Virus record (IMG/VR): IMGVR_UViG_3300033273_000282
Coordinates: 96,001-160,000 of that record
Source of the DNA: a virus
Taxonomy: Duplodnaviria > Caudoviricetes
Direction: 5' to 3' (one strand)
DNA: 64,000 bases
Under the pieces are notes generated by a model. It had not been told where the DNA came from. It made no database searches and saw only the letters and a list, made by a program, of their open reading frames with translations. Every line of letters starts with the position of its first letter. Position 1 is the first letter of the stretch. Made by a program: the position numbers and the translations under genes. Below are positions 6,414 through 11,698 of the stretch, in pieces.

Positions 6414-6584
6414 ATGACTCGCATCGAGATCAACCGTGAGCTCACCCGACTCCGCTTCGAGCGTGAGAAAGCCCAGCGTGAGGTTGACAACATCCAAGCC
6501 TGTATGAACGCTCTCATCCAGAAGCGTAACGACATGGATTTCGAGGCTAAGCACGGCGATCTGTACACCGCAATGTTCTCCTGA
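6414..6584 (+). CDS. Small coiled-coil-like hypothetical protein, 56 aa (not in track)
   Basis: MTRIEINRELTRLRF...TAMFS*, after TATAAT at 6384-6389. Confidence 0.65.
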   Translation: MTRIEINRELTRLRFEREKAQREVDNIQACMNALIQKRNDMDFEAKHGDLYTAMFS

Positions 6585-6586
6585 TC

Positions 6587-6799
6587 ATGCTTTTCCAAGT
6601 TACTGACATTCAATTCGACTGCTATCTTGACGACGAAGATTGGAATGAATCCGATCAAGTCTGTACCGAAGAAAAGCTCAGTGAAGAATACACTGGTTCG
6701 ATCTGGGAAGCAGATGATGGTGATGATCTAATCGAAGAGATCACTGCTGCTTCAGGTTGGTGTATTAAGTCCATTGATTATCGCAACGTTCTAAAATGA
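6587..6799 (+). CDS. Small acidic hypothetical protein
   Basis: 70-aa ORF tightly packed with its neighbours. Confidence 0.7.
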   Translation: MLFQVTDIQFDCYLDDEDWNESDQVCTEEKLSEEYTGSIWEADDGDDLIEEITAASGWCIKSIDYRNVLK

Positions 6800-6930: not shown

Positions 6931-7141
6931 TTTAATGCACTATCGCATCCAAGCAGCGATGCGAGAGAATACTTTTCCTCCTGAGGAGTTAGAGTATCTT
7001 GGTAAGCGTGGTGATGAGCACTGGTATAGAATTGCTGGTGAGCATGACGTACCAGTGAGCCATATTACCATGTTTGAAGACTGTGACGATCCTGGAACTG
7101 ACCCAGGTGACCTCCATGACCTTTTCGATCCATTAGACTAA
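6917..7141 (+). CDS. Small hypothetical protein
   Basis: 74-aa ORF in a packed gene run. Confidence 0.6.
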   Translation: MKPSDLMHYRIQAAMRENTFPPEELEYLGKRGDEHWYRIAGEHDVPVSHITMFEDCDDPGTDPGDLHDLFDPLD

Positions 7142-8993: not shown

Positions 8994-9108
8994 TAAGGAG
9001 CTGTACAATGAGGTATGCCGTTATTTTGAAGAGACAGAAGAAGAGAAAGGTATCTACTGTAAAGATACCATTTCTGTCTATCACGGACGCAATACACTAC
9101 GAAAGTAA
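8971..9108 (+). CDS. Small hypothetical protein
   Basis: 3' part of track ORF 8884-9108; start position uncertain. Confidence 0.4.
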   Translation: MYSQYVNNKELYNEVCRYFEETEEEKGIYCKDTISVYHGRNTLRK

Positions 9109-9164
9109 TATAAGACTCCACGACCCCAAAGTAACACACACCGAAGTTATTCCTCTATTTTCTG

Positions 9165-9362
9165 ATGAAGCACCAGTTTGAAGTCAACAACACTCAGATC
9201 GTCATTGATCTCAAGCAAAAGCGTAAAGGTGTGTATTGGTCTTATCAAGACACCCCATATAACTATGGACCATTCAAGAGTGACCAACAAGCCCTGAATG
9301 ATGCTAAACTCTACTCCCAGTATGGAACAACAAATAAACTCCTCATTCCTGAATCCAAGTAA
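9165..9362 (+). CDS. Small hypothetical protein
   Basis: 65-aa ORF. Confidence 0.6.
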   Translation: MKHQFEVNNTQIVIDLKQKRKGVYWSYQDTPYNYGPFKSDQQALNDAKLYSQYGTTNKLLIPESK

Positions 9363-9942
9363 AGTAGAGCCACGCTTACTTGTACTCAAACGGTTCAATG
9401 ATCAGATCAGAAAGGAGTTTGACAAAGCATTACCTAATCTAGAGTTTAGAGACTTTGCTTCCTATCAAGAGAACTATATCTCTAAAGAAGGCAAGGGATT
9501 TCCTATACTAGAGAAAGAGTACTATCAGGCACCACAAAGAACAACAACGAATCCTAGTTGGTGTATTGCTCCGATCCTATACAACAGCCAACGCTATAAA
9601 CGTAATAGCGTACTGATGCCTAAACTAACCAAGATGATTGAGTTCATTGGTCATACCACATATGCTGGTATTACTGTACTCGATCCTGGCTATGGATTAG
9701 ATTGGCACTATGATGATGACCCATGTGAAGGAGTCATCCAATTCAGATCTTTCTATAATATCTCTACTGACAATGGTACATTCCTAGAAGTACAAGAGAC
9801 AGAGAAGAGAGTCGTAAGAAAGTATTTCATGGAGTCAGAGTATATGATCTTCAGAGCAAAGAAGAAACATAGAGTGTACAATGAGGGTAAGGCTCCGCGT
9901 TATTCTGTGGTGATAGATGTACTCAAACAACAGTTAATCTAA
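9322..9942 (+). CDS. Aspartyl/asparaginyl beta-hydroxylase-like Fe(II)/2OG oxygenase
   Basis: AGITVLDPGYGLDWHYD (HxD) ... IFRAKKKHRVYNEGKAPRYSVVIDV (distal His and Arg). Start 9298 or 9322. Confidence 0.75.
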   Translation: MEQQINSSFLNPSKVEPRLLVLKRFNDQIRKEFDKALPNLEFRDFASYQENYISKEGKGFPILEKEYYQAPQRTTTNPSWCIAPILYNSQRYKRNSVLMPKLTKMIEFIGHTTYAGITVLDPGYGLDWHYDDDPCEGVIQFRSFYNISTDNGTFLEVQETEKRVVRKYFMESEYMIFRAKKKHRVYNEGKAPRYSVVIDVLKQQLI

Positions 9943-9949
9943 ACAACCC

Positions 9950-10003
9950 TGTGGAAAACCCTGTGGAATCTGTGGAAAAACCTGTGGAAAACTCTGTGGA
10001 AAA
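9950..10003. repeat. Tandem array of five TGTGGAA(AA) units (reverse complement TTTTCCACA, DnaA-box consensus)
   Basis: TGTGGAAAA at 9950, 9971, 9983 and 9995; TGTGGAATC at 9962; followed by an A/T-rich run to 10020. Confidence 0.85.
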
Positions 10004-10051
10004 AAATGTATTAAAAAATGTGTTTGTGTGAGCTAGTCGGCGGAAAGGGAT

Positions 10052-10084
10052 GGGAATGTCTGGGAATGTCTAGGATTGTCTAGG
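10052..10084. repeat. 10-bp tandem repeat GGGAATGTCT x2 plus AGGATTGTCT
   Basis: Read directly from 10052-10084. Confidence 0.75.
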
Positions 10085-10131
10085 TGCCTTTGGGGCTTAG
10101 CACGCAACCTATCGAAAGTCAACCACTCGAA

Positions 10132-10188
10132 GTACACTTTGAGAACTGTCACAGAACCCTCCGAAACCCTCCGAATTGGCTGTATAAT
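10132..10188 (+). promoter_or_regulatory. Early promoter cassette
   Basis: GTACACTTT-GAG-AACTGTCAC at 10132-10152, 30 nt (containing AACCCTCCGA x2), TATAAT at 10183-10188. Confidence 0.7.
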
Positions 10189-10215
10189 TACAGAGTAATC
10201 AAAAGGGATCAAACC

Positions 10216-10503
10216 TTGGCACCACGAAAGAAAAAAGCAACTCCGCCGAAAGCTGCCACAATTGTGAGTCCTGTTACTTTTGATGTAAAAGAGTACAGCA
10301 CAGCTATTGACACCATTTCGGTAGACTCTGAGAAAGTTAGTGTAACCTTCGCAAGTCAAGAGAAAGTGTATGATTATACTTTCTCAGGGGATTTGAAAGA
10401 ATTTGTTGAAACCCTTGAAAAGTATACAAAAGAGCAGCATTTGTCTCTTGGTAAGTATTTCAATGGTTTGGTGAAAGATGGTAGTCTTTCTCAAAAAGTA
10501 TAA
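10216..10503 (+). CDS. KTSC-like domain protein
   Basis: STAIDTISVD...VTF...YDY...SLGKYFN resembles KTSC. TTG start at 10216 lies after the promoter and an AAGGGA leader. Confidence 0.55.
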   Translation: MAPRKKKATPPKAATIVSPVTFDVKEYSTAIDTISVDSEKVSVTFASQEKVYDYTFSGDLKEFVETLEKYTKEQHLSLGKYFNGLVKDGSLSQKV

Positions 10504-10543
10504 CTATTAGTGAAACCTTTGAGTTTAGACAAAAGTAACACAA

Positions 10544-10735
10544 ATGGCTAAAACCTGGAACAATAGAGGTAGTAATCGCAATTCCTCTTTTAGTAAGAAG
10601 AAGAGAGAATATGCTGAGTATCTTGATCTTGAGAGCAGTGGCTATCTTGATCAGATTGCCAATGCTAAGAGGATCAAGAACTATAGCAAAGACATCACCA
10701 ACTACGATGACATCGATGACTACTACTCTGAATGA
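10544..10735 (+). CDS. Small hypothetical protein (basic N-terminus, acidic C-terminus)
   Basis: 63-aa ORF. Confidence 0.65.
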   Translation: MAKTWNNRGSNRNSSFSKKKREYAEYLDLESSGYLDQIANAKRIKNYSKDITNYDDIDDYYSE

Positions 10736-10895
10736 GTTTGTAACACCAACTGATCAGGTAGATTATGTTCAGTATCTGTTGGACACTGATTTGATCAACG
10801 ATCATCCTGAATATCGGAAGATTGCTGACTACTACCTGATGGAGGGTTTGTGTTACGAAGTGTTTGTGGGAGACGATTACAACAACTCTCAGTGA
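10716..10895 (+). CDS. Small hypothetical protein
   Basis: 3' part of track ORF 10611-10895 from ATG 10716. Confidence 0.55.
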   Translation: MTTTLNEFVTPTDQVDYVQYLLDTDLINDHPEYRKIADYYLMEGLCYEVFVGDDYNNSQ

Positions 10896-10963
10896 GTTTG
10901 TGTTAGTAACTGTGTCCGACTAATTGACACTATGCGATGAGCCGCCCGATCGCAAGGGGTTGT

Positions 10964-11023
10964 GTGCCACTTTAATGAACTGTCCACCTAACCCCCCAGA
11001 TCGCGGGTGCCTGTGCCTATACT
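10964..11023 (+). promoter_or_regulatory. Early promoter cassette
   Basis: GTGCCACTTT-AATG-AACTGTCCAC at 10964-10987, 30 nt, TATACT at 11018-11023. Confidence 0.75.
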
Positions 11024-11029
11024 AGTCAC

Positions 11030-11197
11030 ATGAACAAAACCACCAACCCCTACGCTCAGCAGATCCTCGCTAAGGGACGCGACCTGCCCACGACCCCCGC
11101 ACCTAAGCGGGAGTTCCCCTGTACTATCCACGGTCGCCGCTTCGAGACTCAAGAAGAGTATAACGAAGCACTCGCAGATTTCCTGAACGGTAACTGA
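11030..11197 (+). CDS. Small hypothetical protein, 55 aa, probably leaderless (not in track)
   Basis: MNKTTNPYAQQILAKG...FLNGN*; ATG lies 6 nt after the -10 box. Confidence 0.65.
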   Translation: MNKTTNPYAQQILAKGRDLPTTPAPKREFPCTIHGRRFETQEEYNEALADFLNGN

Positions 11198-11201
11198 AAC
11201 T

Positions 11202-11381
11202 ATGTCTGACATGTTTAACTCTGTTCTCGAATCTCTGCCTCAATTCATCTCTGAAATGGAGGCAGATTGGTGTATGGTTTATGACTTCATGGAAGCACAG
11301 ATTGGTGTGCTTACTGAAGATCAATGGGATCAAGTTGAGATGGTATACTGGCAGCATGGTCTAGAAGATCAGCGCTTCTGA
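11202..11381 (+). CDS. Small acidic hypothetical protein, 59 aa (not in track)
   Basis: MSDMFNSVLESLPQF...EDQRF*. Confidence 0.6.
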   Translation: MSDMFNSVLESLPQFISEMEADWCMVYDFMEAQIGVLTEDQWDQVEMVYWQHGLEDQRF

Positions 11382-11432
11382 GTATACCTTACTCACTCCT
11401 GAGTTCTTTATACTTAGGGCGGCTCGCATGGG

Positions 11433-11491
11433 GTGCCAGCTGGCATACTGTCCACCAAACACCCCAAAGCAGCATCCCCTGGCTCTATACT
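11433..11491 (+). promoter_or_regulatory. Early promoter cassette
   Basis: GTGCCAGC-TGGCAT-ACTGTCCAC at 11433-11455, 30 nt, TATACT at 11486-11491. Confidence 0.7.
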
Positions 11492-11497
11492 CATTCC

Positions 11498-11698
11498 ATG
11501 ATCAACATCAACTGCAGCACGTCCACCTCAGTCTGGACTCTCAAGGTCAATCCCCTGACTGGCACATGTAAGGTACGCTGGTTCAAAGGGTGCCTGACTG
11601 AGTATACGTTCAAAGCATCCAAGCGTGCCATCCTAGCGCTGCTGATCGCCCACGACCGTTCCTTGGGACAGTGGGTGAACTGGCACTGCTTCGCTTGA
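11498..11698 (+). CDS. Small KTSC-like protein, probably leaderless
   Basis: STSVWTLKVN...VRWF...EYTF...SLGQWVN; ATG lies 6 nt after the -10 box. Confidence 0.6.
   Translation: MININCSTSTSVWTLKVNPLTGTCKVRWFKGCLTEYTFKASKRAILALLIAHDRSLGQWVNWHCFA

Follow-up and report, generated by a model that had tools for sequence, protein, structure and literature searches.

A tandem array of host-type DnaA boxes in a conserved promoter cassette of a T4-like cyanophage, with a possible role in early transcription

INTRODUCTION

Several phages and plasmids draw on the DnaA protein of their host. At lambda pR/ori, P1 oriR, pSC101 and pPS10, host DnaA boxes lie by an A/T stretch, direct repeats, a promoter inverted repeat and a small gene, and in lambda, P1 and the iteron plasmids DnaA acts as an auxiliary and not as the sole factor. 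Bacteria also possess DnaA-titrating clusters of boxes, such as datA of Escherichia coli and the DnaA-box clusters of Bacillus subtilis. An array with four or five perfect boxes characterises origins and titration sites more than DnaA-regulated promoters (dnaA, nrd, mioC), and in E. coli it is the TGTGG side of box R1 that faces the unwinding element. Within bacterial origins, tandem co-oriented boxes with gaps of at most 3 bp recruit and oligomerise DnaA (PMC8287927, PMC10721633), and a co-oriented box pair with such a gap is part of the definition of the basal unwinding system (PMC8287927). The cyanobacterial box listed in Ori-Finder and DoriC is TTTTCCACA, which is bound by DnaA of Cyanothece in vitro (PMC2275245, PMC4674748).

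The T4-like phages are described in other terms. At oriF and oriG of T4, a promoter is followed by a downstream A+T-rich unwinding element and replication is primed from an R-loop; the review of T4 replication that sets this out makes no mention of DnaA (PMC3016281). Our literature search turned up no account of DnaA boxes in cyanophages. Here we analyse a 64-kb window (bases 96001-160000 of a 200,309-bp viral record) in which an earlier note, made from the sequence alone, had read an oriC-like or DnaA-titrating element in a T4-like phage. We find that the boxes belong to a conserved cassette with an early-type promoter, and we tentatively propose that they serve as an input to this promoter.

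RESULTS

A tandem array of perfect boxes between two genes

Four perfect copies of TGTGGAAAA were found by inspection of the sequence and by pattern search, all co-oriented on the (+) strand and starting at 9950, 9971, 9983 and 9995. A fifth copy on the same strand, TGTGGAATC at 9962, has two mismatches. The resulting spacing of 12, 9, 12 and 12 bp leaves 3-bp gaps at 9971/9983/9995, and both positions and spacing are exactly as first read. Tandem Repeats Finder reports the same stretch as a 12-bp array of 5.2 copies (9945-10003). The array lies within 273 bp between the stop of a hydroxylase-like ORF (9942), which precedes the first box by 7 bp, and the likely TTG start of the next gene at 10216. 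Such copies are more numerous than composition predicts: the 64-kb window holds 5, with 0.79 expected, and the 200,309-bp genome holds 13, compared with 1.1-2.8 expected under Markov models of orders 1-4 and with 1 copy of the reversed word. Seven of the 13 copies fall in two cassettes, one of them in the window, and the other six are singles within long reading frames.

The repeated word is the cyanobacterial DnaA box

All four perfect copies match TTTTCCACA at 9/9 positions and fit the general TTWTNCACA consensus. Together with box clusters upstream of dnaN in the hosts, this bears out the earlier identification of the 9-mer as the cyanobacterial DnaA-box word (PMC2275245, PMC4674748). The relatives of the phage are Kyanoviridae and its psbA is 94% identical to that of marine/estuarine Synechococcus/Cyanobium, in agreement with its description as T4-like. 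DnaA is encoded in all five host-type Synechococcus genomes examined, and in these five, boxes that differ from the word by one mismatch at most are clustered upstream of dnaN (e.g. 5 in 170 bp in one genome, G005); the window array is denser and more perfect than these clusters. The perfect word occurs 8-23 times in each host genome (2.4-3.3 Mb), no more commonly than a reversed control, and 0-1 times upstream of dnaN. This absence of genome-wide enrichment is what one would predict for DnaA, but not for a general regulator.

We also compared 59 forward boxes (at most one mismatch) from the corresponding position, hereafter the slot, of related viral cassettes. Variation was confined to few positions and fell mostly at the W position of TTWTNCACA, giving a recurrent variant, TGTGGATAA, that is the canonical DnaA consensus.

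Paired boxes occur elsewhere in host Synechococcus as well. Three genomes share an inverted pair, TTTTCCACA/TGTGGAAAA, 44 bp apart at one locus (L260:1502-1554, L261:1557-1609, L262:1398-1450), and two share a tandem pair 21-22 bp apart at another locus (L263:1492-1522, L264:1444-1473). These conserved pairs may be DnaA-controlled sites outside the origin.

Box positions are conserved in two orthologs

The window copy has an ortholog in two viral contigs (L293, L294), where the upstream protein is 94% identical. In a three-way alignment of the window copy with both contigs, none of the 36 positions of the four perfect boxes had changed, compared with 9 of 18 spacer positions (Fisher's exact p = 9e-6). 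Judged from this alignment, the boxes are under purifying selection. The degenerate TGTGGAATC copy is not conserved in the two orthologs. The earlier note would have abandoned its reading if the 9-mer were not conserved in relatives; all 36 positions are kept, and the boxes recur in many phages.

The array is one part of a promoter cassette

The features around the array are collected in Table 1. They follow the order box slot, AAATGTATTAAAAAA tract, variable 10-11-bp repeats, core block, dyad with two short direct repeats, TATAAT and phrog_4357 gene, which we refer to as the cassette. The A/T tract is the right border of the exchangeable slot and the breakpoint of the slot swap described below. 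The repeat segment beyond it differs by lineage in both copy number and sequence, with TACTGTAAAG-type units elsewhere. In the window, where Tandem Repeats Finder places this 10-bp array at 10053-10084, GGGAATGTCT stands at 10052 and 10062, and the GGGAATGTCT-type 10-mers that had been reported are present; however, two of the three units are an expansion seen only in this genome. Relative to its two orthologs the window has 20 extra bases, equal to two more GGGAATGTCT units, and their absence from the orthologs makes the 10-mers a recent expansion and not a conserved element.

Table 1. Features of the box array, its cassette and the flanking genes (positions in the window)
Feature	Position	Strand	Basis or remark
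Upstream gene, Asp/Arg beta-hydroxylase-like 2OG oxygenase	9298..9942	+	PF05118, E = 3e-9
Box slot: four perfect TGTGGAAAA (= TTTTCCACA) and degenerate TGTGGAATC	9950..10003	+	Sequence, pattern search, repeat finder
A/T tract, AAATGTATTAAAAAA-type, 21 bp, directly 3' of last box	10004..10024	+	In nearly all cassettes; AAAAAAATGTATTAAAAAATG at 10000-10020
Tandem 10-bp repeats, GGGAATGTCT type, 3.2 copies	10052..10084	+	Tandem Repeats Finder
Core block TTAGCACGC-N3-CTA-N2-GA-N2-GTCAA, most conserved in cassette	10097..10122	+	Box-blind pattern scan
Imperfect dyad GTACAC-N8-CTGTCAC	10132..10152	+	Other cassettes have TGTGCCAG-N8-GTGGCACA there
Two direct AACCCTCCGA repeats, -35 to -10 region of early promoter	10155..10175	+	10-bp array, 2.1 copies (Tandem Repeats Finder)
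TATAAT -10 hexamer, presumed early promoter, no canonical -35	10183..10188	+	Invariant in orthologs
First downstream gene, 95 aa, TTG start, phrog_4357	10216..10503	+	phrog_4357, E = 2e-15
Second small operon gene, 63 aa, phrog_38633	10544..10735	+	ORF list, PHROG match

Read on the minus strand, the core block contains TTGACT, 17 nt and TAAGCC, a weak candidate for a leftward promoter; a sigma-70 consensus scan does not retrieve it, and the final T of a -10 hexamer is missing. A GTGC...GCAC hairpin around the core block was considered and dropped, as it is not universal among cassettes. Between the dyad and the -10 hexamer, the AACCCTCCGA repeats have a counterpart in CCCTCAGA-type repeats of other cassettes. 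In many cassettes this interval holds a direct repeat pair of the type CCCTC(C/A)GA, which may be an activator site replacing the -35 element. Co-variation of iterons and dyad was unconvincing by eye.

The phrog_4357 gene at 10216 has an AAGGGA ribosome site about 8 nt upstream of its TTG and is paralogous to the gene that follows the other cassette of this genome (E = 7.5e-24 there). Its protein has homologs in P-HM1 and P-HM2, and a match to KTSC is weak. With respect to RNA genes, Rfam was blank over 9000-11500 and ARAGORN found no tRNA.

The cassette recurs in the same genome and across cyanophages

A second box cluster, made up of two direct boxes and an inverted one, lies at genome 828-871. 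The two copies have in common the AAATGTATTAAAAAA tract, a GGCTTAGCACGC...GTCAA block, a TATA-type -10 and the paralogous phrog_4357 genes; they differ in that the window copy has additional boxes, none of them inverted, and lacks a meltable leader. When the core region is placed on a tree, the window copy clusters with its two ortholog contigs and the other copy with different contigs, which suggests that the two are either old paralogs or separate acquisitions. The HNH homing-endonuclease-like ORF that precedes the other cassette (L001:309-917, genome 309-917) runs through its three boxes, and a similar case occurs in contig L149.

When viral contigs were scanned for box pairs with 1-5 bp between them, more than 118 loci were found, a clear subset of which have the whole cassette layout. 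To avoid circularity, we also scanned with the core block only, which gave 48 viral contigs and, from these, 46 unique cassettes. Some 20 of the 46 carry boxes just upstream of the A/T tract, with 12-bp spacing in 26 of 37 cases. Most cassettes have 2-3 boxes, compared with 4-5 here, and in many a long, very A/T-rich leader precedes the gene. Among named phages, the cassette is present in S-PM2, S-RSM4, S-H9-1, S-WAM2, S-MbCM7 and P-HM2, with a match to the core block pattern in S-PM2, S-RSM4, S-H9-1 and S-MbCM7. Cassettes with DnaA-type boxes were found in S-CAM1, S-CAM3, S-RIM32, S-RIM44, Syn1, several Sf- phages, S-H38, S-CREM1 and DSL-LC03. Cassette and phrog_4357 gene co-occur, in both copies of this genome and in the named phages.

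Nearly all records of named phages leave the stretch unannotated, the exceptions being a hypothetical-protein call in Syn1 and misplaced tRNAs in two S-PM2 records. A tRNA-Leu under the S-PM2 match was rejected as a misplaced RefSeq annotation, ARAGORN finding no tRNA at the locus. The S-PM2 RefSeq record NC_006820 (L128:688-1515) lists six tRNA features here (five named and one pseudo-tRNA), several of which overlap a CDS and one of which reaches the cassette. ARAGORN finds none of the six, so the tRNA coordinates of NC_006820 look shifted. In P-HM2, the annotated 42-aa CDS PHM2_052 (L127:2335-2463) lies over the conserved non-coding core and is probably a spurious gene call. A different shared cassette was seen in contigs L021, L027, L028, L030, L031, L051, L057 and L087 (G+C 0.32-0.39), with four or five TGTGGAAAA copies at mixed 11- and 21-24-bp spacing.

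The box slot is exchanged between phages

The cassettes of S-RSM4, S-H9-1 and S-WAM2 are present in genomes that contain no TGTGGAAAA at all. In these phages and in S-MbCM7, the slot (L129:1330-1460, L130:1330-1460 and L131:1340-1460 for S-RSM4, S-H9-1 and S-WAM2, and L132:1330-1430 for S-MbCM7) holds ATTGAGAATCAAT-type words and an inverted GTTCTCAAT in place of DnaA boxes. We call these slots B-type, and those with DnaA boxes A-type. In S-RSM4, S-H9-1 and S-WAM2, the first slot word overlaps the last codons and the stop of a small upstream gene, whose product could be the reader of the B-type slot. The B-type word, considered as a candidate site of a host regulator, occurs as TTGAKAATCAA 23 times in the five host genomes, compared with 1 occurrence of the reversed word; most copies are in low-GC islands, and half of all copies are inside long ORFs. 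A literature search with TTGAKAATCAA found nothing relevant.

Other slots differ again, with GATTTCATAG repeats in P-HM2 and no repeated word in some cassettes. The cleanest case is a pair of close relatives, L155 and L160, which share about 93% identity from the A/T tract on and are unrelated across a slot of about 40 bp, one slot having TGTGGATAA and TGTGGAAAA and the other TTGAGAATCAA. One and the same host strain is infected by S-PM2, with DnaA boxes, and by S-RSM4, with ATTGAGAATCAAT. That sister phages of one host strain have unrelated slot words indicates that DnaA is not essential to the core job of the cassette; a slot that can be exchanged or left empty is an add-on input and not the engine of the cassette. 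The clean swap of about 40 bp and the empty slots suggest that the role of the slot is modulatory.

DISCUSSION

We regard host DnaA as the probable reader of the array. DnaA domain IV was absent from the phage genome in a domain search. The genes upstream of A-type cassettes also differ, with a hydroxylase in the window, an HNH endonuclease before the other copy and, in S-PM2, p059, and the lack of a constant neighbour fits a host-encoded reader. Tandem TGTGGAAAA arrays occur in unrelated viral contigs as well, among them L034, which resembles an actinobacterial phage and has an actinophage-like terminase, and this points to a shared cellular reader.

What such a reader would do is a more tentative matter. 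We propose, at somewhat short of an even chance, that the array serves to dock host DnaA and thereby to modulate the early promoter of its cassette. Host DnaA, in its ATP form and cooperatively, would occupy the array early in infection, and its effect would be relayed through the adjoining A/T tract and core block. The output in the window copy would be the TATAAT promoter (10183) of the two-gene phrog_4357 operon, and early-gene expression would thereby be coupled to the state of host DnaA and hence of host replication. Here we infer DnaA binding to the boxes, an effect on transcription, the sign of that effect and its path over 180 bp to the promoter. Of the three functions that the earlier note had offered, namely a first round of replication primed by host DnaA, a datA-like sink and control of the downstream early promoter, the last fits the window copy best. 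Several observations count against it, however. Some 180 bp separate the boxes from the -10 hexamer downstream, a long distance for direct contact with RNA polymerase, and the cassettes of S-RSM4, S-H9-1 and S-WAM2 are without any such box. The order of boxes, A/T tract, direct repeats, promoter dyad and small gene is like that of an iteron-plasmid origin, and the number of perfect boxes is more usual for an origin or a titration site. Different slot words in phages of the same host also allow lineage-specific phage readers, with the DnaA-box match secondary.

RNA from S-PM2 (four RNA runs of one study) bears on the promoter to a small degree. Upstream contigs end at 6508-6640, and the boxes lie at 6604-6637; 6641-6777 is outside contig coverage, a gap that is evidence neither way. 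One low-depth contig begins at the early -10 hexamer, which is weak evidence, and contig breaks near 6952-6957 correspond to tandem repeats.

An alternative for the identity of the reader is a DNA-binding protein encoded by the phage, which would read the slot words as iterons, each lineage pairing its own reader and word, so that identity with the DnaA box would be incidental or mimicry. Phages with hosts in common have at least three unrelated types of slot word (TGTGGAAAA; ATTGAGAATCAAT with GTTCTCAAT; GATTTCATAG in P-HM2), close relatives differ in the slot only, and the small gene upstream of B-type slots ends in the first box, so that a reader could travel with the slot. We nevertheless consider this improbable: a 9/9 match to the host box, with the TGTGGATAA variant recurring in the slot, is hardly expected by chance, no gene is constantly tied to A-type slots, the phage lacks a DnaA-like domain, and tandem arrays extend to unrelated viruses such as L034. 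If DnaA is the reader, the array might instead act as a sink, with multiplying phage genomes draining free DnaA through hundreds of perfect boxes and stopping re-initiation in the host. Like datA and the B. subtilis clusters, it is a non-origin cluster of perfect, predicted high-affinity boxes; it has 4 of these in 54 bp (7 in the two cassettes of the genome), whereas entire host genomes of 2.4-3.3 Mb hold only 8-23, and it is expanded relative to most cassettes. Unlike those clusters it is much tighter (54 bp), virus-borne and fixed in place and orientation inside a promoter cassette, which a pure sink would not need, and sister phages manage without it, all of which leaves a sink very improbable. 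A coding origin of the repeats, as a (P)VE(N/K) peptide repeat that might end a lost or adjacent gene, is scarcely credible, although a frame from 9948 gives PVENPVESVEKPVEN... until a stop at 10031, the HNH endonuclease ORF of the other copy does extend across the boxes, and two of the spacings, 12 and 21 bp, are divisible by three. The upstream ORF is in a different frame and ends at 9942, and a GTG at 9951 has no preceding ribosome site. In S-PM2 and most cassettes the boxes lie outside ORFs or in peptides of about 10 aa, direct copies are often accompanied by an inverted one, and some spacings are 8 or 11 bp.

An origin of replication was the other main reading of the locus: array-bound DnaA would help to open the A/T tract or stabilise an R-loop at the cassette promoter and so start the first phage DNA synthesis, either as a DnaA-assisted T4-type origin or as one like those of iteron plasmids. 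Its parts follow an order similar to that of pSC101/P1/pPS10-type origins. Unlike lambda, P1, pSC101 and pPS10, however, the locus has no Rep-family initiator (the downstream protein is phrog_4357) and belongs to a lytic T4-like phage that encodes a full replisome of its own. The 10-bp repeats differ in count and in sequence between relatives as close as 94% identity, which, like the missing Rep family, counts against an iteron-type origin. The co-oriented perfect boxes, 3 bp apart beside an A/T-rich stretch, do correspond to the box part of the bacterial oriC basal unwinding system (PMC8287927, PMC10721633). The resemblance of the window copy ends there. The A/T tract of the earlier note exists, at 10000-10020, but it is short, it lies on the AAAA side of TGTGGAAAA, unlike the unwinding element of E. 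coli oriC, and its surroundings do not melt unusually easily: the best windows of 30, 60 and 100 bp rank in the top 1.2%, 6.7% and 36% of the genome. DnaA-trios, scored as at least three (3'-GAT-5') within about 16 bp of the boxes, are absent from both flanks and both strands, the best runs being no better than those in shuffles. The T4 comparison divides the two copies. Both belong to the same virus class as T4 and have an early-type promoter, and at the other copy and in S-PM2 the promoter is followed by the easiest-melting DNA of the genome (top 0.04-0.16%), which is the layout of oriF/oriG (PMC3016281). In the window copy, the gene starts about 21 nt after the promoter, with no A/T-rich leader between TATAAT at 10183 and the TTG at 10216, so the oriF/oriG layout is absent here and present at the other copy. 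The 'oriC-like' description is thus not supported for the window copy, which has no meltable region, no trios, unconserved 10-mers and a gene that follows closely on its promoter; the other copy, given its very meltable leader, is the better origin candidate. The 'iterons' of T4 oriE are unlike the array, being 24-nt coding repeats in gene 5 of unrelated sequence; in the T4 gene 5 stretch inspected (L296:2927-3058), the 24/48-nt oriE direct repeats have no likeness to DnaA boxes. Cumulative GC skew reaches its minimum and maximum at genome 5,863 and 100,389 (window about 4389), each about 5 kb from one of the two cassettes, but these extremes are also borders of the late structural block and hence not diagnostic, and they probably mark those borders rather than replication. 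Most important, sister phages exchange the slot or leave it empty, and we consider an origin at the window array unlikely.

Promoter control by DnaA remains our preferred, if tentative, account of the window array. A wider reading, which we hold to be doubtful, is that T4-like cyanophages, unlike T4, recruit host DnaA. The arrays would then be either DnaA-assisted origins, with the window array as a second origin, or a DnaA trap that shuts down host initiation, and phage replication would be tied to the light- and growth-dependent activity of DnaA. The replication origins and early-timing signals of T4-like cyanophages are unmapped, and these viruses kill much of the picocyanobacteria of the ocean. 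The same module is present in the laboratory phages S-PM2, S-CAM1 and Syn1. The slot swap narrows the hypotheses, in that DnaA would be an optional input, and phages with A-type and B-type slots that infect the same host are natural controls. An array of perfect host DnaA boxes, conserved among relatives, offers a testable link between phage development and the replication state of the host.
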